A model generated the notes under the pieces. The model searched no databases. It saw only the letters and a list, made by a program, of their open reading frames with translations, and was not told the DNA's origin. A program made the translations under genes and the position numbers. 64,000 nt of DNA, from positions 21,235 through 85,234 of the forward strand of contig JAFGFN010000026.1 of the NCBI GenBank assembly GCA_016931035.1, read 5' to 3'. Below, in pieces: positions 30,394-51,047 of the stretch. The stretch's first letter is position 1. Every line of letters starts with the position of its first letter. This DNA comes from Candidatus Sumerlaeota bacterium. GTDB taxonomy: Bacteria; Sumerlaeota; Sumerlaeia; UBA8349.

Positions 30394-30709
30394 AGGAATT
30401 CCCTTCCTCCGCGTGGGCGGCAATGAGGCATGTAGCCCGGGCTGAACACCTGAGTCGAACGTGTTATTCATATCCGAAATGGGCAGAACTGTCAAGATCG
30501 GAGCGATTCTCGGAGTACTTCACCGATTGGAGCCCCAACGGTTCTCTCTTGGCCGGAGCGGCTTTTTCGCGACGAGAACATATCGCCCTGAAGTCACGGA
30601 CGTTGCATCCGGAACGTCACGCGGATCTCTCCAGGATCGAGACGGTCGAACCAAGACGGGATTTCGACGAGCGCCATGGGGGCGACCATGAATCTTCTCG
30701 CTTTCCGCG

Positions 30710-32197: not shown

Positions 32198-32275
32198 GAG
32201 ACGACTTCCTCCGATCGCCGCGGAATCTCTGCCACCACATCCGGGTCTCCTAGGATCCGATACGACACGCCTCTT

Positions 32276-33646
32276 TCAGAACACCCGTCCGGCGAGCTCG
32301 AGGAATTCCGTCACGGGCGCTAGAACAGGGAAGCCCTCGCTTCGCGGGATGTGGCCGTTGACGAACATATAGAGCATCGCCTGGTTCCAGAAGACAAACA
32401 TGGCGGAAAGAATAGCCGCCGAGACGAGCCAGACTCTCCGGCGCGGGAGCGCATCGTAGATCGCACCGAGTCCGAGCGCGAACAGAGCCGTGAACGGGAT
32501 GAACTGGCGCGCGCCGAACGAATACCCCATCCACCAGACCGACCACGAGGCGTAAACGTAGTACATGACCACAGCGTGCACCGTCGCGATCCGGAGCGTC
32601 GCGCTCCGGGTTCGCCGCGCCAGGAACCACACCCACCCGCAGAACCCGACGAAGAGAAGGGGCGACCAGTAGAACAATCCGTGGCGGGTCGAGAAGAGGA
32701 CTTGCCAGAGCGCGGGCGAAGTCCAGTTGAAGCGTTCGCCCGGGTTGTTCATCGCGACGTGAAACCAGGTTCCCCACATCGCGCGCCACGCGAGAATTTG
32801 GGGGAAGAATGCAAGGATAAATCCAACACCCACAAAGATATACACGATGGCAATACGGCGAGGCGAACATCCCCCGGCCCCCTCCTTCGAGCCTCCGAAC
32901 AGGACCAGAAGAATCGGAACAAGGACGAAGAGAACGTTCTCGGTGCGGAGCGCGCCGCCGAGTCCGGCCAACGCCCCGAGCGCCACCCAGTGCCACGCCG
33001 TGGCGCATCCGTCCTCGACCCGGAACGCCGCGAGCAAGAGGAGGTTGTAGACCACGAGCGTCGGCAGCGTCGGGCTGCACCAGAAGGCGATCGTTCCGTG
33101 ACTGAGCGGAGAACAGAGGAACGTCACAAACGTCGCGGCGGACGCGGCGGAGTCGCCGACGAAGCGGCTCAGGATGCGCCGCGTCGTCCAGAAGGCCATT
33201 CCGCCAAACACGAACGCCGCCAAAGGCGGCACGAACTGATAGAGGGGCGTGTAGCCGTCCGCCGCCCAGCTCCACAGACCGCCCAACCGCCCGACCGGCG
33301 TCAACACGTGGGCCAACAGGAAGAACGGCGCGATGAGAATCGAATACCCCACTCCATAACGATTGAAGTAAAGACCCGTGTGGGGCGAACGCGGGAGGAA
33401 ATCGCGCGTCTGGAACCCGTGGCGGTTGTAGTTGTGTTCGTAGAATTCGTTCTCGAAATCCAGATCGCCGTCGATCGCGAGCGAACGAACGAAGGCATAG
33501 TACGCCTGACCGTCGGTGCCCGCGATGCCCGCGTAGCGCGGGTTGTCGGAGTCGACCGCGACCATGTACAGCGATTGGGCGACGACAATGGCGAGATAGA
33601 TCGCCAGAGAGCGGCGCAGGAAGAGGTTTGCGATTCGTTCGAGCAT
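32276..33646 (-). CDS. Polytopic membrane protein, possible GT-C-fold glycosyltransferase
   Basis: 456 aa with many TM helices. Adjacent to a GT4 gene with a 4-nt gap. Confidence 0.45.
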   Translation of the reverse strand: MLERIANLFLRRSLAIYLAIVVAQSLYMVAVDSDNPRYAGIAGTDGQAYYAFVRSLAIDGDLDFENEFYEHNYNRHGFQTRDFLPRSPHTGLYFNRYGVGYSILIAPFFLLAHVLTPVGRLGGLWSWAADGYTPLYQFVPPLAAFVFGGMAFWTTRRILSRFVGDSAASAATFVTFLCSPLSHGTIAFWCSPTLPTLVVYNLLLLAAFRVEDGCATAWHWVALGALAGLGGALRTENVLFVLVPILLVLFGGSKEGAGGCSPRRIAIVYIFVGVGFILAFFPQILAWRAMWGTWFHVAMNNPGERFNWTSPALWQVLFSTRHGLFYWSPLLFVGFCGWVWFLARRTRSATLRIATVHAVVMYYVYASWSVWWMGYSFGARQFIPFTALFALGLGAIYDALPRRRVWLVSAAILSAMFVFWNQAMLYMFVNGHIPRSEGFPVLAPVTEFLELAGRVF

Positions 33647-33650
33647 CGTG

Positions 33651-34814
33651 TCAGCGCCGCGCGGCGGCGCGTCGGAGGATGTCCTTCAGGGCCTCGATTC
33701 TCGAAGGCCAGCGAAACTCGGTCGAGGCGTGTTCGCGCCCTTCCGCGCCCATCCTCCGAGCCGACTCGGGGTCGCGCAAGAGACGGAGAATCGCCCGGGC
33801 CACGCACTCCGGATCGCGTCCGTCGACTCGGAGTCCCGTTTGGCCGTCGAGAATCGATTGGCTCGTCCCGCCCGCGTTGCCTCCGACGACGGGCAGACCG
33901 TGCGCCGACGCCTCGGCAAACGCGATCCCGAACCCTTCGGTGTCGCCGGTGCGCTCGATATCGAAGTTGGGCAGAACGTAGCAGTCGCTCTCGGCAAACG
34001 CTCGCAGAAGGCTCTCGCCGTCCACGCGGCCCTCGAGCCGCACGACCTCGCCGAGACCGAGTTGGGCGGCCTGTTTCGCCAAATCCGCCGCCAAAGGCCC
34101 GGTGCCGACAATGCGGTAGCGCAGACTCGGGAATTCCTTGAGAACCGTCGGGAGCGCTTCGAGAACGGTCGCGTGGCCCTTGCGCTCGACGAGCCGTCCC
34201 ACGCTCAGGAGTCGCGGTCCGCGAGCGGGGTCGCTCAAGGGGCACGCGGCATACCGCGGATCGAAATGTTCGTCCGCGACGGCGGGAAGGAGCACCTCGA
34301 TTCTGTCCGCCGGCGCACGGAGAAGATCCGTCAAGCCCGACCGGGCGTTCTCCGACGCGGCGACGACAACCCGCGCCCGGCAACAAACCCGGCGCGCGAG
34401 ACGAGACTGAATTCGCGTGCGCGAGATCGTCGACGGCTCCTCGGCGTGGGTGAACGCGACGAGCGGCTTGCCCAGCATCGCCGCGACAATCGCGACGGGC
34501 GGCCCCGTCGGCACCAACTCTCCCGTCAGTATGACGTCGGGACGGAACCGCCGGGCCGCTCGAAACGTCTGGAGAAGAAGGTTCGCTCCGAGCGGAACGA
34601 ATTGGAGTCTCAGCGGCCGGAGCCACTCGGCGCGTTCGATCCGGCAGCGCCGGATCTTGTAGGGTTGAGCGGAGTCGAACTCGCGCCAACCCGGGATGCG
34701 GCGGGTCAGGACGAGCGTCTCGAAGCCGTCGAGGCGGCTCAAGAGGTTGTGGTAGTAAACGCGCGACCCGCCGAGGTGAGGAAGATAGTTGTCGGTGACG
34801 AGAAGAATTCGCAT
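33651..34814 (-). CDS. Glycosyltransferase family 4
   Basis: Starts MRILLVTDNY and has the GT4 EX7E region (TEGFGIAFAEASAHGLPVVGG). ATG at 34814. Confidence 0.8.
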   Translation of the reverse strand: MRILLVTDNYLPHLGGSRVYYHNLLSRLDGFETLVLTRRIPGWREFDSAQPYKIRRCRIERAEWLRPLRLQFVPLGANLLLQTFRAARRFRPDVILTGELVPTGPPVAIVAAMLGKPLVAFTHAEEPSTISRTRIQSRLARRVCCRARVVVAASENARSGLTDLLRAPADRIEVLLPAVADEHFDPRYAACPLSDPARGPRLLSVGRLVERKGHATVLEALPTVLKEFPSLRYRIVGTGPLAADLAKQAAQLGLGEVVRLEGRVDGESLLRAFAESDCYVLPNFDIERTGDTEGFGIAFAEASAHGLPVVGGNAGGTSQSILDGQTGLRVDGRDPECVARAILRLLRDPESARRMGAEGREHASTEFRWPSRIEALKDILRRAAARR

Positions 34815-35016
34815 GAGGGCGAAAAACGACCGGCGAGAGAGATCGCGCATCCGGGGAGATCGAGCCCCGCCTCGGGTTCGACCGACATCATAGGTCCATT
34901 CCTCGCGTCCCGTCAAACGGCATATCCACACGGCTCTCCTGGGAATCTTGGGGAAGAACCCGGACACGCGCGCTCGAAAAGGGAGGAGGCTCCTTCTCCG
35001 CGGGGATTTCTTGGGC

Positions 35017-35787: not shown

Positions 35788-36927
35788 ATGAAAGTACCCC
35801 TGCTGGATCTGAAAGCGCAGCTGGCGCCGATCGAACGCGAGATCAAGGAGGCCGTCCTCGAGGTCGTGGATTCGACCCGCTACATCATGGGGCCTAAGGT
35901 CGAGGAGTTGGAAACGCGGATCGCCGAGTACGTCGGCGCGGCCCGGGCCGTCGGCGTCTCGTCGGGCACCGACGCCCTCCTAGTCTCCCTGATGGCGCTC
36001 GGCGTCGGCTCGGGCGACATTGTGGTGACGACGCCCTATTCGTTTTTCGCCACGGCGGGCGTCGTTGCGCGTCTCGGCGCGACCGCCGCGTTCGTGGATA
36101 TCGATCCCGACACTTACAACATCTCCCCCGCCGCGCTCGAAGAATGGTTCGAACGCGAGACAACCCGCGTCGGCCAAGTCAAGGCCATCGTTCCGGTGCA
36201 TCTCTACGGCCAGTGCGCCGACATGGACCCGATTCTCGAAATCGCGCGACGCTACGGCGTCCCGGTGGTCGAGGATGCGGCCCAGGCCATCGGGGCGACC
36301 TATCCGTCGAAGTCGGGCGTCAAGAAAGCCGGCGCGATGGGAACCGTCGGGTGCTTCTCGTTCTTCCCGAGCAAGAACCTCGGTTGCCTCGGGGACGGCG
36401 GCATGGTAGCGACCGACGACGCGGCCCTCGCCGACAAGATCGTCCTTCTGCGAAACCACGGGGCCCAACCGAAGTACTACCATTCGCTCGTCGGCGGGAA
36501 TTTCCGGCTCGACGCGATACAGGCCGCCGTCCTTCTGGTCAAGTTGCCGCATCTCGATACCTGGCACGCCGGACGCCGCGCCAACGCCGCGTACTACGAC
36601 CGGCATCTGAACGTTCCCGGCCTCAAGAAGCCCCACGTCGCCTACGGACCCGACTCGCACATCTATAATCAGTACGTCCTGGCGGTCCCCGACGACCGTC
36701 GCGACGCCCTTCGCAAACACCTCGACGCGAACGCCGTCGGCAACGAGGTCTACTATCCCGTCCCGTTCCACGAACAGCAATGCTTCGCCCACCTGGGCTA
36801 CAAGACGGGCGATTTCCCGCACAGCGAGCGCGCGGCGCGCCGCACCATCGCCCTGCCGATCTACGCCGAACTGACCGATGGGATGAAGGATTACGTTATC
36901 GAGAAGATCGAGGCATTCTATGAGTAA
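35788..36927 (+). CDS. DegT/DnrJ/EryC1/StrS family PLP-dependent sugar aminotransferase
   Basis: Starts MKVPLLDL. Contains the PLP-lysine region [10 protein letters not shown]. Confidence 0.85.
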
Positions 36928-38548
36928 GAAAGTCTGCGTCGTCGGGGCCGGACGCTGGGGACGCAACCACATCCAGACGTTGCACACGATGGACTGCCTC
37001 GGGGGCATCGTCGAGGCGAACGACGAGACCCTCGCGCGTCTCGCCCAGTCCTACCCCGAGGCCAAGACCTTCCCGAACGTCCGCGACGCCGTGCGCGAGG
37101 AGTTCGACGGATTCACCGTCGCCACGCCCGCCGCGACGCATTTCGAGATCGCGTCGTTCCTTCTGCGCGACAAGAAACACGTCCTGGTCGAGAAGCCGAT
37201 CGCGCTAAAAGCGTCGGAGGCGAGAGAACTCGACGCCCTGGCCCGGCGGCAGGGCGTCCAGCTGATGGTCGGCCACGTTCTCCTCTTCCATCCCGCCATC
37301 GCCAAGATCAAGGAACTCGTCGACGCCGGCAAGATCGGCAAACTCGAGTATCTTTACAGCAATCGCCTCAACCTCGGCGCGGTGCGAACGGAAGAGAACA
37401 TCCTCTGGAGTTTCGCCCCGCACGACATCTCGATCTTCCAACACCTCATCGGGGCGATGCCGACGCAGGTGACCTCGCGCGGCGGAGCCTTTCTCCAGCC
37501 CCACATCCACGACACCACGATGACGGTCCTCTCCTACCCCGACAACGTGGTCGGACACATCTTCGTCAGCTGGCTCCACCCGTTCAAGGAACACCGCCTC
37601 GTCGCCATCGGTTCCAAAGGGATGCTCTCGTTCGACGATTCGAGCGAGAGTAAGGATCTTCTCTTTCACGAAAAGGGGATCGACTGGGTCCAAGGCGAAC
37701 CGGTCAAGCGCGACGGCGCGACCGAGGCGATCCCCTACGACCGGACTCTCCCTCTGACCAACGAGCTGACCTACTTCGTGGACTGCCTGGGCGGCAACCC
37801 CGTCGAACTCGCGGACGGACGCAGCGCCGTCGAGGTCCTCGAAATCCTCGAACAAGCCACCGTGAGTCTCCTCGCCGGGTCGCCCGTCGCGCCTCAACCT
37901 TCGAAGGACTACTTCGTTCACAAGAGCGCCTACGTGGACGAAGGCGCCGAGGTGGGCGCGGGAACGAAGATCTGGCATTTCTCTCACGTCATGAAGGGCG
38001 CCCGGATCGGCGAGCGCTGCATTCTCGGCCAGAACTGCAACGTGGACGGGGGCGCGCTCATCGGCAACAACGTCAAGGTCCAAAACAACGTGTCGATCTA
38101 CGCCGGGGCCGTCATCGAAGACGATGTCTTCCTCGGACCGTCGTGCGTTCTGACCAACGTCACGAACCCGCGCTCCCAAGTCGTACGGCATTCGCTCTAC
38201 GAGAAGACGACGATCCGGCGCGGCGCGTCGATCGGGGCGAACGCCACCATCGTTTGCGGCGTGGAGATCGGACGCTACGCCTTCATCGCCGCCGGCGCCG
38301 TCGTTGCGAAGAACGTCCCCGACTATGCGTTGATGGTCGGGGTCCCGGCGCGGCAAACGGGATGGATGAGCCGCCACGGGCTGCCGCTCCAGAATCCCGA
38401 CGCCGAAGGCGTGATGACCTGTCCCGAGAGCGGGTATCGCTACAAAGAAGCGGTCCCGGGCGTCCTGCGATGTCTCGATCTGGACGAAGAAGCTCCTCTG
38501 CCCGAGGACTTGGCGATAGGGAAACGCCCCTACGACAGTTTCAAGTAG
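36920..38548 (+). CDS. Bifunctional Gfo/Idh/MocA-type sugar-nucleotide dehydrogenase / hexapeptide-repeat N-acetyltransferase fusion
   Basis: Residues 1-330 carry the Rossmann motif [11 protein letters not shown] and an oxidoreductase C-terminal domain. Residues 340-542 carry left-handed beta-helix hexapeptide repeats ([49 protein letters not shown]). Confidence 0.8.
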
Positions 38549-40750: not shown

Positions 40751-42712
40751 TTGCGACTCATGATTCGCGCTTTCGACATCGCTTTCTCCCTCGTCGCGCT
40801 CGTGCTGCTCGCTCCGCTTGCGCTCTTGATCGCCTTATTGATCAAGATCGATTCGAGCGGCCCCGTCCTCTTTCTCCAAAAACGCGTCGGGCGCGGCGGC
40901 GTTCCGTTCACGATGTTCAAGTTCCGCAAGATGCGCGAGGGGCTCGCCAACCAAGGGCCCGCCGTCACGTCGCGCTACGACAGCCGCCTCACCGTCGTCG
41001 GACGCTGGCTCGAACGAACGAAGCTCGACGAGCTCCCCCAACTCCTCAACGTCCTCAAGGGCGACATGGCCGTCGTTGGCCCTCGACCCGAACTCGAGGA
41101 GTTCACGCGCTTCTATCCCGAGAAATGGAAGGACGTCCTTTCCGTCCGGCCCGGCTTGATCGGCCCCAGCCAGGTCCTCCATCGCAACGAGTCCGAGCTC
41201 TATCCGCCCGACTGTCGCGACCGCGAGGATTTCTACGTCCGCCGTATCCTGCCCGACAAACTCGATTGCGACATCCGGTACATCGAGAACGCTTCGCTTC
41301 TCTACAACCTCACCATCCTGATGCGAGCGCTCTTTCGCACGCTAATCGGGACGATCACACGCGATTCGACGATCTCGACGGCCCGGAGCCTCTATCTGCT
41401 CGTCTCCTATACGCTAGTCTCCATCCTGAGTCTCTACGCCGCCTACCGGCTCCGGTATCCGGACGCCATGCCGGTGACCGACGCGCGGATCTTCAGACTC
41501 AGCTTCCCCATTCCGATCGTTGTGTATCCGCTCGTGTTCCTGTCGCTGCGCGTCCATCGCCGCATGTTCGGGAGCCTGACGCTCGAAGACGTGACGGCGT
41601 TCTTCAAGAGCTGCGTCGTCGGGTCGTTCCTGATGATCCTGGTCCTTCTGATCCTCGACGCCCGGGAGTTCTCGAGACTGGTCTACAGCATCGACTTCGT
41701 TTTCCGTTTTCTCGGCCTGACGCTCCTGGCCTACGTCGAGTATCAATACACTCAAAAACGCAAGCTCCTGACCGGCCGCGACATCGTCCGAGCGGTCGTC
41801 TTCGAGGCGGTCGCCGTCGCCTTTTTGGTCCTGTGCTCGATTCTTCTCATCGCCTTCGCCGTCCCTCGCCCGTCCGAAGCCGCCGCCGACTTCGCGCGAA
41901 CGATCTGGGCCGTCGCCGCGCTCGCCGTCGCCGCGCCGCTCATCTACATGGCGACCTTCCAGGAAGTCCCAAGACGACTCGTCTACTATCTCAAGGTCAA
42001 GATGAAGCAAACCGCCATCATGCTCGCCCAAGGCGCGTTGTTCCTCGTGGTCGTCTCGCTCCTCCTCGACGTGCGCGACTACTCGCGCCCCGCCGTCCTC
42101 CTCTCGATCGTCGTCCTGACCGCGTCGCTCATGGCGTTCTTCGTTCTCACTTGGTGGTTGCGCTGGCGCTCGCTTCCCGAGGTCCGGCGCGACCGCGTGC
42201 TCCTGATCGGTCTCGCGCCCGACCTCGACCTGTTCATCACCGCGCTGCAACGCAGCCACGTCGACTACTCGATCGTCGGCATCATCAGCGACGAGACACG
42301 GGATCGGTTCTATACCGTCTCGAAGATCGAGATTCTGGGGACGCTCAACGAGCTCGAAGACGTCCTCAACGTATACCGCGTGGATACGTTCGTCGTCTCG
42401 TCCGAACGCCTCGGCCCCCACGAGATGGCCTGGGTGCGGCAAATCGCCCGCGCGCACAACGTCGCGGTCCGATACATCACCGGGGTCGATCGGTTCATGC
42501 GGCTGGATGCGGAGCGAGAGGAATCCGCACTGGAACGGTCGGCAGTGGAAGAAATCGCGAAGCCTTCACTCCCCGTCACCCCTCCCGCGGAAAAAGCGGA
42601 AGCGGCAAACGGCGAAAGGAAACGGAAGCGTTCATCTCGTTCGCGCCGCGCCGCCGCGTCTCGACCGAAGGAACCGCCACGCGCCGCAGAGACTTCCGAA
42701 TCCGTAGGATAG
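40751..42712 (+). CDS. Polyprenyl-phosphate sugar phosphotransferase (Bac_transf/WbaP catalytic domain) with permuted domain order
   Basis: The N-terminal 200 aa form the complete sugar-transferase catalytic domain (KRVGRGGVPFTMFKFRKM ... DELPQLLNVLKGDMAVVGPRPE). They are followed by a multi-TM segment, a Rossmann-like CoA_binding_3-like region (VLLIGLAPD...VDTFVV) and a basic low-complexity tail. Confidence 0.75.
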   Translation: MRLMIRAFDIAFSLVALVLLAPLALLIALLIKIDSSGPVLFLQKRVGRGGVPFTMFKFRKMREGLANQGPAVTSRYDSRLTVVGRWLERTKLDELPQLLNVLKGDMAVVGPRPELEEFTRFYPEKWKDVLSVRPGLIGPSQVLHRNESELYPPDCRDREDFYVRRILPDKLDCDIRYIENASLLYNLTILMRALFRTLIGTITRDSTISTARSLYLLVSYTLVSILSLYAAYRLRYPDAMPVTDARIFRLSFPIPIVVYPLVFLSLRVHRRMFGSLTLEDVTAFFKSCVVGSFLMILVLLILDAREFSRLVYSIDFVFRFLGLTLLAYVEYQYTQKRKLLTGRDIVRAVVFEAVAVAFLVLCSILLIAFAVPRPSEAAADFARTIWAVAALAVAAPLIYMATFQEVPRRLVYYLKVKMKQTAIMLAQGALFLVVVSLLLDVRDYSRPAVLLSIVVLTASLMAFFVLTWWLRWRSLPEVRRDRVLLIGLAPDLDLFITALQRSHVDYSIVGIISDETRDRFYTVSKIEILGTLNELEDVLNVYRVDTFVVSSERLGPHEMAWVRQIARAHNVAVRYITGVDRFMRLDAEREESALERSAVEEIAKPSLPVTPPAEKAEAANGERKRKRSSRSRRAAASRPKEPPRAAETSESVG

Positions 42713-43732
42713 ATGGAAGATCGGGAAGACGACCGGAAGCGCGACCAGCAGCACCCACCCGTTCCTGGCCGCCGCCTGAATAGACGCCCCCAGAACGCAC
42801 GCGAGATACACCGCCACGCCCGCCGCGAGACACCGCGCGAAAAGGACGTGAACGAACGCCAACGGGATCCCGACAAGAAGCGCGCAGACGAACGCCAGCG
42901 GGACCCAGTGCCGGATCGACGCCGCTCGACCGTGCTTCTGCATCACGCGAATCTTCCAGAACCCGTACTCGAAGTACTGCCGCCAGAGCGACCGAAACGA
43001 ACCGCGCGCCACGTACCACGACCGAATCGCGGGCGATTGCCAAATCTTCTTGTGCGCCCGCGTCAGGCGCAGGTTCATCTCGTCGTCCTGATTTCGCATC
43101 AACTCCTCGTCGAACCAACCGACTTCGTTGAAAAGCGCGTTGCGCCAACACCCGAGATAGACCGTATCGACCCGCCCTTCGTAATCGAGATCGCGACACC
43201 GAGCCCCGCCGACGGCGAACGGATGTTGGAACGCCGCGGCGATGGCGCGCGACAGAACCGACTCGCCGGCTTCAGCGCGCCAGGGTCCGCCGACGTTGTC
43301 GGCCTTCGTCTCGCGCAGGGTCTCGACGCACCGCGCCACGTAGTCGTCGGCGATCCGCGTGTGGGCGTCGACCCGGATGACGATCTCTCCCCGCGCCCGT
43401 TGAATCCCTTCGTTCAATGCCGTCGAGACGATGCGCCGTGGATTGGCGATCAACCGGACCCGCGGATCGCGCCGCGCGATTTCCGCGACGATCTTGTCGG
43501 TCCCGTCGTCGCTTATCCCGTCGCACACGAGGACCTCGAACCCGCCCGGCACGTCCTTCTGAGCCAGAATCGACTCGAGACACGCGCGGATCATGTCGCT
43601 TTCGTTCCGCACCGGAACGACGACGGATACGACCGGTGAGACTTGAGGAGACGAGGGGTCGGGGTTCATACGCTTCGAATCGGCTTGTTGGCGTTTGGCG
43701 AATATGCGATAGTCCGGTAGCGCTTCGGACAT
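42632..43732 (-). CDS. Glycosyltransferase family 2 with C-terminal TM helices
   Basis: GT2 core (VVSVVVPVRNE...DGISDDGT...VDAH). An alternative start is at 43669. Confidence 0.75.
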   Translation of the reverse strand: MSEALPDYRIFAKRQQADSKRMNPDPSSPQVSPVVSVVVPVRNESDMIRACLESILAQKDVPGGFEVLVCDGISDDGTDKIVAEIARRDPRVRLIANPRRIVSTALNEGIQRARGEIVIRVDAHTRIADDYVARCVETLRETKADNVGGPWRAEAGESVLSRAIAAAFQHPFAVGGARCRDLDYEGRVDTVYLGCWRNALFNEVGWFDEELMRNQDDEMNLRLTRAHKKIWQSPAIRSWYVARGSFRSLWRQYFEYGFWKIRVMQKHGRAASIRHWVPLAFVCALLVGIPLAFVHVLFARCLAAGVAVYLACVLGASIQAAARNGWVLLVALPVVFPIFHLSYGFGSLCGAWRFLRSRRGGAARTR

Positions 43733-43790: not shown

Positions 43791-44915
43791 GTGACGAAAG
43801 TGAAGATTCTCACCGTCGTCGGCGCGCGGCCCCAATTCATCAAGGCCGCCATGGTGAGCCGCGCCGTCGCCCGACACAACGCCGCCGCCCTCCCCACGGC
43901 CCCACCCGTAGTCGAGGAAATCGTCCACACGGGTCAGCACTACGATCACGGAATGAGCCAGGCCTTCTTCGACGAGATGGAGATCCCCGGTCCCGCCGTC
44001 AATCTCGGCGTCGGGTCGGGCACCCACGGCGAGACAACCGCCGCCATGCTCCGCGGCCTCGAGGCCGAGATCGTCGCGCGCCGTCCCGACTGGGTCCTCG
44101 TCTACGGCGACACGAATTCGACTCTCGCCGGCGCGCTGGCCGCCGCGAAACTCCACGTCCCCGTCGCGCACGTCGAGGCCGGGCTGCGTTCCTTCAACAA
44201 ACGAATGCCCGAGGAGATCAACCGTCTCGTCGCCGACCACGTCTCGACCCTTCTCTTCTGCCCCACCCGCGCGGCGGTCGAGAACCTCGCGAGCGAGGGG
44301 ATCGCCGACGGAGTTCACGCGGTGGGCGACGTGATGTACGACGCCGCGCTCGCCTTCGGAGACCTCGCCCGCCAACACAGCGACGTTCTCGATCGCCTCG
44401 GTCTCGCGCCGAAGGGCTACGCCCTCGCCACCTGTCACCGCGCCGAAAACACCGATAGCGGCGAACGCCTCGCCGCCATTCTCGACGGCCTGGGCCGCGT
44501 CGCCGAGTCCGTGCCGGTCGTTTTGCCGCTCCACCCTCGCACGCGCGAGCGGATCGAACGATTCGGGTTCGCGAAACGCGCCGAGCGTCTCCGCACCGTC
44601 GAGCCCGTCTCGTTTCTCGACATGATCCGGCTCGAGCAGGAGGCGCGCGCGATCCTCACGGACTCCGGCGGCGTTCAGAAGGAGGCCTACTTCCACGGCG
44701 TGCCGTGCGTCACGTTGCGCGACGAGACCGAATGGGTCGAGACTGTCGAGGCCGGATGGAACACCCTGGCGGGCGCCGACGCCGACGCGATCGCCCAGGC
44801 CGCGCGCGACGCCTCCCCCGGCCGCCCGATCGCCGACTACGGCGACGGCCACGCGGCGGACAAGATCCTCTCAATCCTTCTCTGCCCTTCCTCAAACCCC
44901 GAGGAAGAAACCTGA
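43791..44915 (+). CDS. wecB: UDP-N-acetylglucosamine 2-epimerase (non-hydrolysing)
   Basis: Contains the WecB motifs (VGARPQFIKAA and HVEAGLRS). GTG start at 43791 or 43800. Confidence 0.85.
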   Translation: MTKVKILTVVGARPQFIKAAMVSRAVARHNAAALPTAPPVVEEIVHTGQHYDHGMSQAFFDEMEIPGPAVNLGVGSGTHGETTAAMLRGLEAEIVARRPDWVLVYGDTNSTLAGALAAAKLHVPVAHVEAGLRSFNKRMPEEINRLVADHVSTLLFCPTRAAVENLASEGIADGVHAVGDVMYDAALAFGDLARQHSDVLDRLGLAPKGYALATCHRAENTDSGERLAAILDGLGRVAESVPVVLPLHPRTRERIERFGFAKRAERLRTVEPVSFLDMIRLEQEARAILTDSGGVQKEAYFHGVPCVTLRDETEWVETVEAGWNTLAGADADAIAQAARDASPGRPIADYGDGHAADKILSILLCPSSNPEEET

Positions 44916-45101: not shown

Positions 45102-47012
45102 TCAAACGAACGGTCTACGGTTGTCGAGGAACTGGCGGCAGAAGCTGTTGAGGCAGAGGAAACCCCAGATCTTGCGGCCGAAACTCGGCTCGCTCGGAAG
45201 ACCCCGCCGGATCGCGTCGAAATCGAGAAACTCCCGCGCCGCCTGCGAGGGTTCGCCGAACGCCTTCTCGACGAACTCCTTGAGCGCGTCGCCGTACCAT
45301 TGCACCAGCGGGACCGGGAATCCCATCTTGTCCTTGCGCCCGAGGACGCTCGCGGGCAGGGTGTCGCCGAAGAAGAGTTTGGGCAGACGCTTGAGCTCGC
45401 CCCCCCTGAACTTCACGTTCGCCGGGATCGTCGCCACGAACTCGACCAGCGGATGGTCGAGGAACGGGGTGCGCGACTCGACGCCGTGCGCCATGCTCGT
45501 CCGGTCCTCCACTTGGAGCAGCGCGGGCAGGAGCGTGAGGAAGTCGAAGTGGAGCATGCTGTCGAAGTAGCATCGGCTCCCGATCTCGTTGGAGAAATAC
45601 ACGCGGCGAAACTCTTCGTACACGTCGTAGTCGCGCGGGAAAGCGTCCCACCGCACTTCGTCGCGCACCTCGGCGCTGCGGTCGATCAGGCGGAAGTAAC
45701 GGCGGTCGTAGTCGTCGAACATCCCGGCGCTGAAGAAGTGGCGCATCAGAGGCTCGTATCCGGCGAGCGACTGGAGATTCGGGATGATCGACTCATAGGT
45801 GACGATGAAACGCGGCGAATGGCTCTCGCCCGCCACCGCGCCTTTGAGGCACTGCTCGAAGTAAGCGATCAGGTATCGAACGTACCCGCCGAAGATTTCG
45901 TCCGCGCCCTGTCCCCCTAGGACGACCTTGCGTTTCCCTTTCACGTACTTCGAGACGACGTACTGAGGGAACGAGCCGGGCCCGGCGACCGGGAAGTCCA
46001 TGTGATAGATCAGGCGGTCGAACGCATCGACGAAGTCGTCGCTCGACACCGGGATCTCGCGCAGGTCGATCCCTTCGCGTCGCGCGACGTCGCGCGCGAA
46101 CCCGCTTTCGTCGAACCGTTCGCCGTATCCGCGAAAGACGCCGTGGAACGCCATGAAATCGTCGGCGCCCGTCGCGCGTCGGGCCAGGGCGGCGATGCCG
46201 CTCGAATCGATGCCGCCGCTCAGATAGCCGCTCACGGGAACGTCGCTCACGACGTGCGCGCGGATCGAGTCCTCCATGAGCTCGCGGCATCGCTCGACGA
46301 ACCACGCCTCGCCGTGCTCCATGTCGAGGTCGTACCGTACCTTCCAGTAGGTGTGTGACCGCGTCCCCTCGGAATCGACCGTCCGCCACGTAGCGGGCGC
46401 GACCTCCTCGATGTTCTCGAACAGGGTCTTGCCGCGCAGGCAGAACTGGAAGGTCAGATAATCGCGCAGTCCCGAGCGGTCGATCCGCACGTCGGGAAGG
46501 AACGAAAAGAGCGCCTTGATCTCGGAGGCGAAATAGAGCGTCTCGCCCGACCAGGCGACGTACAACGGCTTGATCCCGAAACGATCGCGCGCGAGGAAGA
46601 GCCGTCGGCGGCGGGCGTCCCAGATCGCGAAGGCGAACATCCCGCGCAGGTACTCGGGACAGGCCTCGCCCCACTCCATATAGGCCTTGAGGATCACCTC
46701 GGTGTCGGACTGCGTCCGAAAGCGGTGCTTGGATTCGAGGCGGGCGCGCAGCTCGCGAAAGTTGTAGATCTCGCCGTTGAAGACGATAGTGAGGTCGGCC
46801 TCGTCTTCGCGCATCGGTTGGCGCGCGCGTTCCGAGAGATCGAGAACGCTGAGCCGAACGTGGCCCATCCCGAGGGCGGCGTCGGGCGCGAGCCAGAGAC
46901 CTTCGTCGTCGGGTCCGCGGTGCTTCTGCAGGGCGTTCATCCGCTCGAGGCGTTCGCCCAGCCGGTCGATCGCCCCGCCTGACGGATTGAAGATTCCCGC
47001 GATCCCGCACAT
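45102..47012 (-). CDS. asnB: Asparagine synthetase B-type glutamine amidotransferase
   Basis: N-terminal MCGIAG nucleophile and the PP-loop SGGIDSS. Confidence 0.85.
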   Translation of the reverse strand: MCGIAGIFNPSGGAIDRLGERLERMNALQKHRGPDDEGLWLAPDAALGMGHVRLSVLDLSERARQPMREDEADLTIVFNGEIYNFRELRARLESKHRFRTQSDTEVILKAYMEWGEACPEYLRGMFAFAIWDARRRRLFLARDRFGIKPLYVAWSGETLYFASEIKALFSFLPDVRIDRSGLRDYLTFQFCLRGKTLFENIEEVAPATWRTVDSEGTRSHTYWKVRYDLDMEHGEAWFVERCRELMEDSIRAHVVSDVPVSGYLSGGIDSSGIAALARRATGADDFMAFHGVFRGYGERFDESGFARDVARREGIDLREIPVSSDDFVDAFDRLIYHMDFPVAGPGSFPQYVVSKYVKGKRKVVLGGQGADEIFGGYVRYLIAYFEQCLKGAVAGESHSPRFIVTYESIIPNLQSLAGYEPLMRHFFSAGMFDDYDRRYFRLIDRSAEVRDEVRWDAFPRDYDVYEEFRRVYFSNEIGSRCYFDSMLHFDFLTLLPALLQVEDRTSMAHGVESRTPFLDHPLVEFVATIPANVKFRGGELKRLPKLFFGDTLPASVLGRKDKMGFPVPLVQWYGDALKEFVEKAFGEPSQAAREFLDFDAIRRGLPSEPSFGRKIWGFLCLNSFCRQFLDNRRPFV

Positions 47013-47014
47013 GG

Positions 47015-48229
47015 CTAGACCCCCAATCGTTCATACCACCGAATCAGATTCGCCGCCTGCGTTTTCCACGAATATCGCTCGCGGGCCCGGTCGAACGATT
47101 CGGGCCGGAACTCGCCGCGGTCGAGCCGCGCGAGGAACGCGTCGAGCGCCGCGGCGATCTCGCGCTCCGACCCCATAGGATACACGTCGCCGATTTCGCC
47201 TTCGCGCACGATCCGGCGCAGCTCGGGCAGGTCGCTCGCGCACACCGCGACGCCCGCCTCGATGAACTCGAAGAGCTTGTTCGGCGTGCAATACAGACTG
47301 TTGAGCATCCCGCTCTCGCGATAGGGGATCACTCCCGCGTCGGCCGCCGCGACAAACGCCATCATGCGCCGGTGCGACGTCCAGGCGCCGAAATGGACGT
47401 TCGAGATTCTCTTGCGGCGACAGAGAGACCGCAAGCGCTCTTTCTCCGTCCCCTCGCCCAGGAAGAAGAGACTCGCCCGTCCCTCGAGATGCCGGAAGGC
47501 GAGCGTCAGGTTCCTCAGGTTCCGATCGGCCGACAGGTTCCCCTGAAAGACGATCTTTCGCCCCGCCGAGGAGGGCGAGCCGAAATGCTTCGCGAAATCC
47601 CCGTTACCCGCGGGTGCCGGACACGGCTCGGCGCAGCTGTTGTAAAGAATCTCGGGAATCGCCGTCCCGTACAAGCCCGCCATCGCCTCGGCGATGGATT
47701 GGTTAACGGCGATGGCGAGATTCACTTCGGATAGACACGCGCGTTCGATCCGCGTCCAATAACGCTGAAAGAACGGATTGATCGTCTGGAAGGGGAAGAA
47801 CTCGTGCGCGTCGTAAATGAGCCGGGCGCGCGGACACTGTCTCTTGCGGACCTCGATCCCCGCGGGCAGGGTTTTCAGGTCGTGACAGTGGATCGCGTCG
47901 AACGTCTCGCCCGCCGGGACGTTGCGCAGAAAGTAAGCCGTGTTGTGAGGCGAAGGGCCGCTCCCGAACAGATACCACAAGCTCTGCGCGAGACCGTAGA
48001 GTCCCGAGGGGAGGCGTCGCGCAACGCGACGCGCGGACGAAGAACTCTCGAACTCGCCACCCGACTCGACCACCGCCCGCACGCGCGGGTCGAGTCCCTC
48101 GGCCTCGATGCGGGTGGGGACGGAAACGAGCGTCGCATCGCGCCCCGATTCGACCAAAGCGTTCGTCTCGCCGACGATTCGCCGGTCGAGCTGCGTTCCG
48201 TGGGCGGAGAGTACGAGGATTCGCGACAT
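47015..48229 (-). CDS. Glycosyltransferase family 4
   Basis: 404 aa with a GT-B C-terminal domain. 2-nt gap to asnB. Confidence 0.75.
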   Translation of the reverse strand: MSRILVLSAHGTQLDRRIVGETNALVESGRDATLVSVPTRIEAEGLDPRVRAVVESGGEFESSSSARRVARRLPSGLYGLAQSLWYLFGSGPSPHNTAYFLRNVPAGETFDAIHCHDLKTLPAGIEVRKRQCPRARLIYDAHEFFPFQTINPFFQRYWTRIERACLSEVNLAIAVNQSIAEAMAGLYGTAIPEILYNSCAEPCPAPAGNGDFAKHFGSPSSAGRKIVFQGNLSADRNLRNLTLAFRHLEGRASLFFLGEGTEKERLRSLCRRKRISNVHFGAWTSHRRMMAFVAAADAGVIPYRESGMLNSLYCTPNKLFEFIEAGVAVCASDLPELRRIVREGEIGDVYPMGSEREIAAALDAFLARLDRGEFRPESFDRARERYSWKTQAANLIRWYERLGV

Positions 48230-48330
48230 ACCGATCCTTCGCCGCGGCGATTCAATGGGTTCGTCTCGCTACAGCACGGTTCTACAGGAGGAAGCGGACG
48301 GACTCCACTGGTTTCTGACAGTCAAAAACG

Positions 48331-48360
48331 TTGACGGGCTAGGACCCCCGAGCCTAATCT
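48331..48360 (+). promoter_or_regulatory. Candidate sigma70-like promoter TTGACG-N18-TAATCT upstream of wzm
   Basis: -35 at 48331-48336, -10 at 48355-48360. ATG at 48383. Confidence 0.25.
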
Positions 48361-48382
48361 GATCCCGGGAGCGAGAACGAAT

Positions 48383-49183
48383 ATGAAGTCCGGCCCTCTG
48401 TGTTTGCTCACCAAGCACCGCGCCATGTTGTGTCGAACAACGTGGAACGAGATCAAGGCGCGTTACGCCGGCTCGATTCTCGGGCTCGCCTGGCTCGTTT
48501 TCTATCCTCTCCTGTTCCTCGGAGTCTACTCGGTCTTCATCTACATCCTGATGGGAAAGCGCGCAGGCGATCTTTCCGATCCCGCCTTGATCGACCAGGT
48601 GCTTCTCGTTTTCTGCGGCCTGATTCCGTTCATCGGTTTCGCCGAAGGGTTGGCGGGCGGCGTGGTCTCGGTCACGCAGAACGCGAACCTGATCAAGAAC
48701 ACCCTGTTCCCCATCGAACTGGTCCCCGTCAAGGCGGTCCTCGTCGGGCAGTGCACCCAGGTGGTCGGTACGGCGATGCTGCTGGTGTGTCTGGCCGTCT
48801 TCGGCAAGTTGACGATCTGGGTTCTCGTTCTGCCGCTCGTCTGGCTGCTGCAAATCGCCCTGTCGGTAGGGGTGGCCTGGATTCTGTCGAGCCTCAACGT
48901 CTATTTCCGCGACCTGCAAAACATCGTCGGCGTCGTCACGTTGATGTTGATGTTGATCAGCCCGATCGCCTGGAAGGCGGTCGACATCCCGGCGAGCGTT
49001 CTGCCGTGGATGATGTTCAACCCCTTGTACTACGTCATCGTCGCGTGTCAGCAATGTCTGTTGCTCGGTCGTTTCCCCGACCCGATCCTTCTCGAAGTGC
49101 TCGGAGTTCTCGCCGTGCTCGTCTTCTTCGGCGGATACGCCTTCTTCCGCAGGATGAAGCGTGTGTTCGCCGACAACGTCTGA
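48383..49183 (+). CDS. wzm: ABC-2 type polysaccharide export permease
   Basis: 266 aa, 6 TM helices, ABC-2 family pattern. Confidence 0.8.
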   Translation: MKSGPLCLLTKHRAMLCRTTWNEIKARYAGSILGLAWLVFYPLLFLGVYSVFIYILMGKRAGDLSDPALIDQVLLVFCGLIPFIGFAEGLAGGVVSVTQNANLIKNTLFPIELVPVKAVLVGQCTQVVGTAMLLVCLAVFGKLTIWVLVLPLVWLLQIALSVGVAWILSSLNVYFRDLQNIVGVVTLMLMLISPIAWKAVDIPASVLPWMMFNPLYYVIVACQQCLLLGRFPDPILLEVLGVLAVLVFFGGYAFFRRMKRVFADNV

Positions 49184-49193
49184 AGGCGTCCAA

Positions 49194-51047
49194 ATGAACG
49201 ATTCGGCCATCCGCCTCAAAGAGCTCGGGAAGATGTACAAACTCTTCCGCCATCCGGCGGACAGGGTGTTCGACGCGTTCGGTCTCCGCCGCCGTCCGTT
49301 CGGACCCAAACTCGTCTTCCAGGAGTTCTGGGCGCTGCGCGGCATCGACCTGCGCGTGACCAAGGGGGAGAGAATCGGCATCATCGGCCAGAACGGCGCG
49401 GGCAAAAGCACCCTGCTCAAGATCGTCACCGGCGTCGCTGCGCCGACCGAAGGGAGCGTCGAGGTCTCGGGACAGATTCAGGCCTTGCTCGAACTCGGGA
49501 CCGGTTTCCACCCGGAATTCACGGGACGCGAGAACATCCGGGCGTCGTTGTCGCTCAACGAATTCTCCTCGTCCGAGATCCGCGAGATGGAGGAGGATAT
49601 CGTCGACTTCGCGGAACTCGGCGATTTCATCGACCACCCTCTCAAGACCTATTCGGCGGGGATGGCGGCCCGATTGGCTTTCTCGACCGCCTCGGCCATT
49701 CGGCCCGAAATCCTCATCATCGACGAGGTCCTGGGCGCGGGCGACGCCTACTTCGCGGGCAAATGCGTCGAACGGATGAAGCAACTCACCCACGAATCGG
49801 GCGCGACGGTCCTCTTCGTCAGCCACGACCTGAACAGCGTCCAGGCCCTGTGCGAGCGCGTCCTCTGGATTCATCGCGGCCAGGTGCATCGCGACGGCGC
49901 GCCGCTCGATACGATCCAGGACTACATGGCGATGGTGCGGCGCGACGAGGAAACGCGGCTCCGCGCGCGCGACCTGAGAGTCCTGAAGAAACAGGCCCTC
50001 TTCCTCGAACGGGACGAGGACGTTTACGAAAAGACCTTGTTCCACTTTGTTTGTCCCGGATCGCCTCCCCCGCCGCCGGGACAGCGCATCTACGGCCTGA
50101 CCCTCTCGGTCGACGAGCAGGAGGCCGCCCGAATCGCGGTCGGGAGCCCGATGGACAATTCGGCCGATCACATGAATTACCTCATGGACACTCCCGGCTA
50201 CATGGACTGGGGACCCGCCGCCAAGGATCGCAACAGTCGGCCCTATCGCGAGTACGGCGACTACAAGGGGCGCTACGGCCACGCCCCCTTCGAGTTCGCC
50301 GTGCCGCGCACTCTGTTGCGCGAGGGCGAGACGCAACGCCTTCAACTCGACATCGAAGCCTCCGTCACTCATGAGGGCATCGCCGTCGAGGCGTACAACG
50401 GCGAGGCCTATGTCCCGATCGGCCCCGTCGCTACGGGCGAAGGCGTGGCGACGCGCCTCGAGTTTTCGAGCGCCCTTCTCCGACCCGGAAAGCAAGCGCT
50501 CGGCGCCGCCGCGCCGTCCGGAGAAACCGCTCTTCTGTCCGCCGCCGAACGTCCGGCCGAGCACGCGCCTCAACAACCCGTCCGCCACGAATACGGCGCG
50601 GGAGGGGCGAAGATTCTCCAGGTGCGAATGCTCAACGCCCAGGGCGAGGACACGCGCGTCTTTCATCCCGACGAACCGATGCGGGTCGAGATCGAATTCC
50701 AAGCCGAGGCCGAGCTGGCCGATCCCGTCTTCGTGTTCTGCGCCTATCTGCCCGACGGCCGGTGCGCCACCCAGTGGATCGTCGATTCGCGGACAATGGG
50801 CTCGCCCCGCGTGCCGCCGGGCAAGGGGCGCGCGACGTTTCGGATCGACCGGCTTGTCTTGGGCAAGTCCGCCTACGTCGCCAGCGCGGCGATCTTCAAG
50901 TTCCTGCGTCCCGACGGGCGGGAACCCGAAAGCTATCACGTCCTCGACCGATGCATCCATTTCCAAGTGGTACAAGGCGTAGAACACGTTTACGAGAAAG
51001 GGTTGTGCGTGCAACCCTTCGAGGCGGAGATCGATCTTGGACGCTGA
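49194..51047 (+). CDS. wzt: Polysaccharide ABC exporter ATP-binding protein with a C-terminal carbohydrate-binding extension
   Basis: Nucleotide-binding domain (GQNGAGKST, LSGG-like, DEVLGAGD) in residues 1-250. About 180-aa unique linker. C-terminal 150-aa Wzt_C-like beta-sandwich (KILQVRMLNAQGE...). Confidence 0.85.
   Translation: MNDSAIRLKELGKMYKLFRHPADRVFDAFGLRRRPFGPKLVFQEFWALRGIDLRVTKGERIGIIGQNGAGKSTLLKIVTGVAAPTEGSVEVSGQIQALLELGTGFHPEFTGRENIRASLSLNEFSSSEIREMEEDIVDFAELGDFIDHPLKTYSAGMAARLAFSTASAIRPEILIIDEVLGAGDAYFAGKCVERMKQLTHESGATVLFVSHDLNSVQALCERVLWIHRGQVHRDGAPLDTIQDYMAMVRRDEETRLRARDLRVLKKQALFLERDEDVYEKTLFHFVCPGSPPPPPGQRIYGLTLSVDEQEAARIAVGSPMDNSADHMNYLMDTPGYMDWGPAAKDRNSRPYREYGDYKGRYGHAPFEFAVPRTLLREGETQRLQLDIEASVTHEGIAVEAYNGEAYVPIGPVATGEGVATRLEFSSALLRPGKQALGAAAPSGETALLSAAERPAEHAPQQPVRHEYGAGGAKILQVRMLNAQGEDTRVFHPDEPMRVEIEFQAEAELADPVFVFCAYLPDGRCATQWIVDSRTMGSPRVPPGKGRATFRIDRLVLGKSAYVASAAIFKFLRPDGREPESYHVLDRCIHFQVVQGVEHVYEKGLCVQPFEAEIDLGR

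Follow-up and report, generated by a model that had tools for sequence, protein, structure and literature searches.

A phosphoglycosyl transferase with its catalytic domain ahead of a membrane–Rossmann module in a Candidatus Sumerlaeota bacterium, and its relatives

The focus of this study was a single open reading frame (ORF) in a 64,000-nucleotide stretch of DNA from Candidatus Sumerlaeota bacterium (GenBank assembly GCA_016931035.1, contig JAFGFN010000026.1, positions 21,235 to 85,234 of the forward strand), the whole of which is referred to as the window. The ORF (40751..42712, + strand) was uninterrupted and encoded 653 amino acids from a TTG start, and an ATG at 40760, three codons past the TTG, gave a protein of 650 amino acids identical to GenBank MBN1866075.1, labelled "sugar transferase" (Candidatus Sumerlaeota bacterium). 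The product is a putative monotopic phosphoglycosyl transferase (monoPGT), in which the catalytic PGT domain comes first and is followed by transmembrane (TM) helices and a Rossmann-like domain of unknown function (DUF). Residue numbers refer to the 653-residue protein, unless the 650-residue numbering (ATG start) is specified. The following features were assigned.

40751..42712 (+): whole ORF, PGT-first monotopic phosphoglycosyl transferase (ORF list, GenBank match)
40763..40852 (+): N-terminal hydrophobic helix, residues ~5-34, with the family-invariant P22 (hydropathy, AlphaFold2 (AF2), alignment)
40766..41341 (+): Bac_transf (PF02397) catalytic domain, residues 6-197 (Pfam, phmmer, Foldseek)
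41027..41032 (+): Asp-Glu dyad D93-E94 in LDELPQL (sequence, WbaP alignment, 49-sequence alignment)
41366..41776 (+): first four-TM-helix bundle, repeat 1, residues 206-342 (hydropathy, AF2, hhalign, hidden Markov model (HMM) of the module)
41777..42190 (+): second four-TM-helix bundle, repeat 2, residues 343-480 (hydropathy, AF2, hhalign)
42191..42550 (+): Rossmann-like DUF of the PF13727/CoA_binding_3 type, residues 481-600, with a long C-terminal helix at its end
42551..42712 (+): Lys/Arg-rich, disordered, non-conserved tail, residues 601-653, and the stop codon
42632..42712: 81-bp overlap of the PGT tail with the last 27 codons of a convergent family 2 glycosyltransferase (GT2) gene

Domains and membrane topology

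Bac_transf was matched with 182.1 bits against a cutoff of 27 (E 9.6e-54; profile positions 2-177 of 179), and phmmer aligned the catalytic domain to PDB chains of WbaP and PglC at E values of ~2e-22. PglC (8e37_A) was matched by Foldseek with E 9.5e-10 and TMt 0.74, with 32-33% of the residues identical to PglC of C. concisus in the Foldseek alignment. The LDELPQL and VGPRP motifs (GPRP at residues 110-113) were intact and aligned with LDELPQL...VGPRP of WbaP; D90, E91, P108, R109, and P110 were invariant in a 49-sequence family alignment, as were R3 and P19 (all in 650-residue numbering; P19 corresponds to P22). At the N-terminus, a hydropathy peak was located at residues 13-31, and AF2/DSSP gave one continuous helix (2-31), which is the predicted counterpart of the re-entrant membrane helix in PglC and WbaP. 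Bac_transf and PF13727 were the only domains detected in the protein by Pfam/NCBIfam profiles, and no match to the short-chain dehydrogenase/reductase (SDR) domain Polysacc_synt_2 (PF02719) was found in it with Pfam. Because of the Bac_transf score (182 bits), the invariance of the DE dyad, the Pro-Arg-Pro (PRP) motif, and the helix proline, its position as the sole PGT detected in the window, and the surrounding polysaccharide genes (see below), the protein is probably an active PGT. Its chemistry would almost certainly be that of a standard monoPGT: UDP-sugar + polyprenyl-phosphate -> polyprenyl-PP-sugar + UMP. The UDP-diNAcBac fingerprints (GLLLP loop and aromatic box; PMC10186338) were not evident in the protein, and a substrate assignment by this means was dropped.

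Apart from the N-terminal hydrophobic helix, a hydropathy scan revealed eight TM candidates, all within residues 213-466. The AF2 model of the full chain, built on the 49-sequence alignment, had a mean predicted local distance difference test score (pLDDT) of 85.7 and a predicted template modelling score (pTM) of 0.75. It placed a PglC-like domain first and eight long helices next, and then a Rossmann domain with a beta-alpha-beta fold (478-573), a long helix (576-600), and a disordered end (608-650; 650-residue numbering). When the two halves of the membrane segment (residues 206-342 and 343-480) were compared by hhalign, a probability of 98%, an E value of 3e-13, and a score of 75.7 were obtained, against scores of <=34 in 30 block-shuffled controls, <=11 in 30 column-shuffled controls, and 12 for a reversed alignment. 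An HMM constructed from repeat 2 and the Rossmann domain also matched repeat 1 (24 bits, i-E 3e-7). BLAST of one TM half against the other as single sequences gave no significant match (E 3.5), and the duplication became apparent only in the profile-profile comparison. By these profiles, the eight-TM segment is a tandem duplication of a four-TM bundle, in which repeat 2 leads directly into the Rossmann domain, an arrangement shared with WbaP and PglF.

The loops predicted to be cytoplasmic contained 18 Lys and Arg residues, compared with 8 in those predicted to lie outside, and an N-in/C-in topology with the catalytic and Rossmann domains on the cytoplasmic face fits this distribution. The number of TM helices is even, and both soluble domains would therefore be cytoplasmic, as is the case for the catalytic and Rossmann domains of WbaP (PMC10942596). 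The predicted layout thus comprises a re-entrant helix with a PglC-like domain (1-200), two bundles (206-342 and 343-480), a cytoplasmic Rossmann domain (481-600), and an unconstrained tail.

A conserved motif, R-[ED]-[FY]-S-R (R-x-x-S-R…D), was present at the TM3/TM4 turn of both repeats (41654-41671 and 42065-42082) and also in homologues. The conserved Asp after this motif is located in TM4, and that of repeat 1 (D312 in 650-residue numbering) was invariant in the 49 sequences. A homologous PGT–dehydratase fusion (P0060, see below) reads PRSVLITD at the aligned position.

The match to Pfam CoA_binding_3 (PF13727), at residues 429-546, was borderline: 23.0 bits with the whole protein and 25.5 bits with the isolated C-terminal half, the cutoff being 25. 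Since a Foldseek search with the whole chain aligned just one domain at a time with WbaP, the module (second bundle and Rossmann domain) was modelled alone (pLDDT 81.8) and searched separately. The top PDB match was WbaP (8t53_A), with E 2.4e-5 over 252 columns across the bundle and DUF; WbaP was also the sole solved protein in the searched copy of the PDB that matched across both parts. On the basis of the model, the C-terminal module is a four-TM-helix bundle and DUF (4TMH–DUF) of the WbaP/PglF type. PDB 3nkl, a 123-residue entry deposited as 'UDP-D-quinovosamine 4-dehydrogenase', is presumably the isolated DUF of a WbpM/PglF homologue, as judged from the naming of homologues.

A first-pass annotation, made from the sequence alone, had described a complete Bac_transf domain at residues 1-200, a multi-helix membrane segment behind it, and a Rossmann-like C-terminus of the CoA_binding_3 type, the relatedness of which was regarded as decisive; the domain order was accordingly taken to be inverted relative to that of WbaP-type large PGTs. 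This description was borne out by the Pfam match at residues 6-197, by the eight TM candidates, on which hydropathy and AF2 agreed, by the PF13727 match at the cutoff together with the Foldseek match to WbaP, and by the order PGT–4TMH–4TMH–DUF (Pfam, AF2). The duplication of the bundle had been overlooked.

The PGT-first family and its origin

The PGT domain was N-terminal in all of the 120 best database matches. The proteins fell into several forms, for which the following Pfam domains were found.

Short form, ~456-480 amino acids (P0010, P0034, P0067, P0073): Bac_transf 3-194, PF13727 ~277-440 (33-51 bits)
Form of the present protein, ~590-706 amino acids (P0002-P0057): Bac_transf, 8 TM, PF13727
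Long form, ~810-860 amino acids (P0060, 813 amino acids): Bac_transf, PF13727 263-440, Polysacc_synt_2 485-765
Long form with an Epimerase-type SDR (P0078, 832 amino acids): Bac_transf, PF13727, Epimerase
Long form with a receiver (P0065, 969 amino acids): as P0060, with a C-terminal Response_reg after the SDR
Form with an N-terminal PilZ (P0112, 660 amino acids): PilZ, Bac_transf, PF13727

PilZ is a domain family known for the binding of cyclic di-GMP. PF00072 was also present in the precomputed Pfam lists of the PGT-first relatives P0084, P0091, and P0119. These signalling domains recall a stand-alone response regulator that is reported to activate a PGT (PMC12802240).

One short form, P0067, was encoded in a Deltaproteobacteria metagenome-assembled genome (MAG) (JACQVA010000008.1; locus L085:8001-10442), where the gene for a soluble SDR of 337 amino acids begins 27 nucleotides downstream. 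When P0067 and the adjacent SDR were concatenated, they aligned end to end with P0081, P0069, and P0078 (~820 residues, ~49% identity). As judged from this alignment, the two proteins are a natural split/fusion pair of PGT–4TMH–DUF–SDR, and the short and long forms thus interconvert through fission or fusion at the DUF|SDR boundary.

Carriers of the PGT-first layout belonged to uncultured lineages (Sumerlaeota, Planctomycetota, one Deltaproteobacteria MAG, and one Anaerolineales MAG), in which it was common, and the proteins carried only the generic annotation 'sugar transferase'. No cultured carrier of the PGT-first 4TMH–DUF architecture was found among the retrieved homologues and in the contig scan. 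A seeming PGT-first protein of 566 amino acids from Clostridium gasigenes (locus L075) was ruled out, its frame passing through a stop codon.

To find the relatives of the module, its profile was run in an exhaustive hmmsearch through 1.84e9 representatives; 5,699 matches had E ≤ 1e-3, 533 had E ≤ 1e-10, and 33 had E ≤ 1e-30. Local HMMs of the PGT domain and of the SDR domain served to sort the best 150 by architecture. The family itself took up ranks 1-50, of which 19 were full-length PGT–module proteins and the other 31 were fragments. Ranks 51-150 comprised 46 module–SDR proteins with the layout of PglF/CapD/WbpM (full-length ones mostly of 570-765 amino acids, and fragments), 38 with the module only (mostly fragments), 9 PGT–module–SDR, 5 PGT–module, and 2 module–PGT, i.e., canonical large PGTs (Lg-PGTs; ranks 90 and 110). 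In hhalign, the module profile matched the 4TMH–DUF of P0060 with a probability of 94.8% (E 5e-8, 176 columns) and E. coli WcaJ with an E value of 0.16 (37 columns); canonical Lg-PGTs from a genome scan obtained 10-51 bits with the module HMM.

A neighbour-joining (NJ) tree was constructed from 201 PGT domains (122 PGT-first, 49 small, 23 canonical large including WcaJ, and 7 others; 60 bootstraps). The large and small PGT (Sm-PGT) outgroups were obtained by one pattern-based contig scan keyed on the PGT domain, the matches of which were mostly generic small or canonical large PGTs. All of the 23 Lg-PGTs were in one split holding no PGT-first protein, and all 122 PGT-first proteins in a split free of Lg-PGTs; in 85% of the bootstraps, at least 110 of them were in such a split. 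The split best matching the PGT-first set also took in 24 small PGTs, together with 4 proteins that had other architectures. The 8-TM clade (P0001-P0057 minus P0054, with a few nested shorter forms) was exact in the full tree, and was recovered with a Jaccard index of ≥ 0.95 in 95% of the bootstraps.

Since the module was nearest to PglF-type proteins and the PGT domain grouped with Sm-PGTs, we favor the reading (with a probability of roughly 70%) that the protein is a real membrane PGT initiating surface-polysaccharide synthesis, which arose from a small PGT and the front end of a PglF/CapD/WbpM-type dehydratase. In the first step of this scheme, a small PGT would have become joined to the N-terminal end of a protein of the PglF type (4TMH–DUF–SDR); the SDR would then have been lost or split off, possibly several times, and the four-helix bundle would have been duplicated at the base of the 8-TM clade. 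The protein is likely a convergent, inverted analogue of Lg-PGTs rather than a circular permutant.

The source is a MAG, and the relatives of the catalytic domain are most often small PGTs of ~200 amino acids, so the gene of a small PglC-like PGT might have been falsely joined in frame to that of a downstream membrane protein by assembly or annotation. However, the ORF was continuous, without the stop or frameshift at residues 200-230 for which the first-pass annotation had advised a check, and GC contents at the three codon positions (~0.65/0.39/0.83) were alike in the PGT domain, residues 190-240, both TM halves, and the Rossmann domain. Approximately 50 homologues (590-706 amino acids) from independent assemblies (ENA, JGI, Logan, and NCBI) spanned 78-98% of the protein and were co-linear through the PGT/TM junction, among them four that were 53-60% identical. 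One and the same orthologue gene was found on contigs of two different samples, and AF2 modelled the chain as a whole (pTM 0.75). Because of the co-linear independent homologues and the uniform codon-position GC, such a fusion or chimera is regarded as excluded as far as is possible without raw reads, and the likelihood left to it is negligible. These relatives, found by the search for other PGTs with an N-terminal Bac_transf domain that the first-pass annotation had proposed, also brought out a point that it had missed: the layout is widespread among uncultured bacteria. The same annotation had explained the inverted order by the circular permutation of a WbaP-type PGT, in which an Lg-PGT gene (4TMH–DUF–PGT) was tandemly duplicated and then trimmed such that the catalytic domain came to the front. 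The three shared building blocks in cyclically permuted order, the size of the short PGT–4TMH–DUF relatives (~460 amino acids, matching Lg-PGTs), the match of the Lg-PGT model TIGR03025 (EPS_sugtrans) in three stretches (262 bits), and WbaP as the best structural match of the module, if also the only candidate of its kind in the PDB copy, are in agreement with this idea. On the other hand, the relatives of the module in ranks 51-150 were 46 module–SDR and 9 PGT–module–SDR proteins versus two Lg-PGTs, the PGT domain was apart from 23/23 sampled Lg-PGTs (with 0/122 PGT-first proteins in their split) and grouped with Sm-PGTs, and no tandem intermediate (…PGT–4TMH–DUF–PGT) was present among the 270 retrieved proteins. 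The PGT–4TMH–DUF–SDR fusions and their one split version, P0067, offer a direct alternative route. Therefore, although the inverted order, the CoA_binding_3-type C-terminus, and the authenticity of the protein all stood, permutation as the origin of the order was not supported, and we consider it improbable.

The favored reading, including the origin from a small PGT and a dehydratase front end, is itself weakened by several points. The trees were built by NJ only, and one pattern-driven scan had supplied both the Lg- and the Sm-PGT samples. The module was far from both groups, with a small gap between them (79.5 bits for the best PglF-type protein and 71.7 bits for the best Lg-PGT); because of this divergence, the argument rests on rank counts uncorrected for the base rates of the two architectures in the library. 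No PglF-type SDR was detected anywhere in the window, which makes the dehydratase link a historical rather than a current one here. In the subclade of the protein, the DUF has IGLAPD at its Gly-rich turn, versus VGxGxE in the family consensus, and since the Pfam score straddles the cutoff as well, nucleotide binding by the DUF may have been altered or lost. The AF2 model contained no counterpart of the beta-hairpin that follows the DUF of WbaP, the last strand (569-573) being followed by the helix 576-600 and the disordered tail. This hairpin mediates a domain-swapped dimerization of WbaP, the DUF of which binds UMP, UDP, and UTP, and UMP inhibits WbaP with an IC50 of 4.1 µM (PMC10942596). By analogy, the DUF here is inferred to be a uridine-nucleotide sensor and oligomerization element tuning PGT activity. 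If the 8TM–DUF part were instead the decaying remnant of a lost dehydratase, a mere membrane anchor without a regulatory or nucleotide-binding role, then the PF13727 score at the cutoff (23.0-25.5 bits), the degenerate turn, the lack of an SDR partner in the window, and the lack of the dimerization hairpin would all be accounted for. This is unlikely, if less so than permutation: identity among four close orthologues was 53-65% in the DUF, comparable with 66-71% in the catalytic domain and above 43-51% in the TM region; the coding GC signature was intact in the DUF, where the model was confident (pLDDT 83-97 over most of 480-580); G484, G507, R516, and G527 were invariant or nearly so across 49 divergent sequences; and the DUF was kept throughout the 8-TM clade. 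More speculatively, and with doubt only slightly smaller, the 4TMH–DUF may be a position-independent mobile regulatory cassette, placed before or after a PGT or before a dehydratase, which ties UDP-sugar supply to the first membrane step, with the duplicated bundle forming an intramolecular pseudo-dimer that mimics the two-bundle stalk of the WbaP homodimer. If so, the initiating enzyme would be monomeric with nucleotide regulation retained.

Tail, overlap, and neighboring genes

Residues 601-653 were rich in Lys and Arg, as previously described for the tail, and were not conserved: no homologue matched them, and pLDDT was <50 over 608-650 (650-residue numbering), consistent with disorder. The 81-bp overlap reported with the convergent GT2 gene (42632..42712) was arithmetically correct. 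Codon-position GC in the tail was 0.68/0.68/0.57, against ~0.65/0.39/0.83 in the body, and the last 27 codons of the GT2 gene (42632..43732, - strand; Glycos_transf_2, E 3.8e-27) had 0.59/0.74/0.67. The 60%-identical orthologue P0002 (locus L082) stops at residue 592, 20 nucleotides ahead of a different downstream gene, without the tail or overlap. Because the GC signature was lost in both tails and both features were absent from this orthologue, the tail and overlap look unconstrained, with no sign of selection in their sequences; the overlap is best interpreted as the run-on of both ORFs into a GC-rich spacer with few stops, and not as a regulatory feature. The loss of the signature extended over the last 27-53 codons of the convergent genes (42551-42712 and 42632-42715). 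In this GC-rich genome, ORFs seem to overrun the ends of conserved proteins, so that other gene overlaps in the window may look larger than they are.

The ORF encoded the sole PGT and the sole 4TMH–DUF module detected in the window, and was surrounded by the following genes.

33651-34967 (-): family 4 glycosyltransferase (GT4)
35788-36927: DegT aminotransferase
36920-38548 (+): GFO/IDH/MocA oxidoreductase (residues 4-323) fused to a hexapeptide acetyltransferase (~330-463), 542 amino acids
38616-40511 (+): Wzy_C (O-antigen polymerase/ligase family) with C-terminal TPR, 631 amino acids, immediately upstream of the PGT gene
42632-43732 (-): GT2
43791-44915: UDP-GlcNAc 2-epimerase family
45102-47012 (-): Asn-synthase-type amidotransferase
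47015-48229 (-): GT4
49161-51047 (+): Wzt ABC-transporter ATPase with Wzt_C (carbohydrate-binding)
51037-54960 (+): methyltransferase–GT4, 1307 amino acids

The order DegT, oxidoreductase–acetyltransferase, Wzy_C, and PGT was kept at the locus of the 60%-identical orthologue, with UDPG_MGDP_dh (UDP-sugar 6-dehydrogenase family) just upstream. A more distant 8-TM member adjoined genes for DegT, SDR, a nucleotidyltransferase, a Wzz-kinase, CpsB, and Poly_export. The DegT, oxidoreductase–acetyltransferase, and 2-epimerase genes presumably correspond to a route resembling that to UDP-2,3-diacetamido-2,3-dideoxy-uronic acid (Wbp/Wlb of P. aeruginosa/Bordetella). The methyltransferase–GT4 protein is assumed to be a possible chain terminator or polymerase, by analogy with WbdD/WbdA-type systems, and its presence together with Wzt suggests an ABC-transporter-dependent glycan pathway beside, or combined with, the PGT cluster. 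From the gene content, we conclude that the protein is the putative initiating PGT of a surface-polysaccharide pathway.

The oxidoreductase–acetyltransferase ORF is a WbpB-like and WbpD-like fusion that shares 8 bp with the end of the DegT gene upstream of it; the orthologous locus L082 (4431-6005) has retained the fusion. A Wzy_C–TPR protein was also encoded near a distant 8-TM family member (L084:16600-17860). Three long ORFs within the polysaccharide cluster, 30594-32240 (-), 32276-33646 (-), and 48269-49429 (-), of 548, 456, and 386 amino acids, had no Pfam match at E ≤ 1e-4; they may be spurious, or may encode divergent membrane proteins, perhaps a flippase, a polymerase, or Wzm.

Comparison with known systems

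MonoPGTs are classified as small (core only), large (4TMH and DUF N-terminal to the core), and bifunctional (Bi-PGT; extra catalytic domains at either end) (PMC10942596, PMC11626204, PMC10186338). No description of the PGT-first 4TMH–DUF form or of the duplicated bundle was found in the literature searched, from which the main monoPGT sequence similarity network survey is excluded; domain-architecture databases probably list the domain combination already, and each part is a known domain, which limits the significance of the architecture.

The protein shares with Lg-PGTs (WbaP, WcaJ, and CpsE; PDB 8T53) a Bac_transf domain with the DE dyad and PRP, a 4-TM bundle, a PF13727 DUF, the predicted cytoplasmic location of the soluble domains, and an initiating role in a polysaccharide cluster. 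It differs from them in its order (PGT–TM–DUF, not TM–DUF–PGT), in the doubled bundle (8 TM), in the lack of the inter-domain beta-hairpin, and in that both its PGT domain and module lie outside the sampled Lg-PGT groups. It failed the NCBIfam cutoffs for Lg-PGTs (TIGR03025, 262.3 vs 295.55; TIGR03023, 227.1 vs 410.75; TIGR03022, 135.4 vs 403), and surveys by domain order would therefore misclassify PGT-first proteins as small or unclassified PGTs. In common with small monoPGTs (PglC; PDB 8E37/8G1N), the catalytic domain starts from residue 1 and belongs to the Sm-PGT grouping of the tree, although a C-terminal membrane and Rossmann extension of 450 residues is carried in addition.

PglF/CapD/WbpM/EpsC-type dehydratases (4TMH–DUF–Polysacc_synt_2) possess, as their N-terminal 4TMH–DUF, the nearest outside relative of the module; the protein is not of the PglF type, because it has no SDR domain, and none was encoded in the window. 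With the PGT–4TMH–DUF–SDR fusions (P0060 and P0078), it has in common an N-terminal PGT followed by 4TMH–DUF, the same radiation of PGT domains, and a homologous junction. P0060, P0078, and P0065 do qualify as Bi-PGTs, whereas the present protein does not, because it has no second catalytic domain; it also carries an extra 4TMH. That the 4TMH–DUF is shared by Lg-PGTs and by PglF-like dehydratases has been called 'puzzling' (PMC10942596). The series consisting of PGT–4TMH–DUF–SDR, the split pair, PGT–4TMH–DUF, and PGT–8TM–DUF bears on the role of this accessory module: it supplies natural constructs for asking whether nucleotide sensing by the DUF and dimerization by the bundle depend on domain order, and forms a concrete evolutionary link of PGTs to PglF-like dehydratases.

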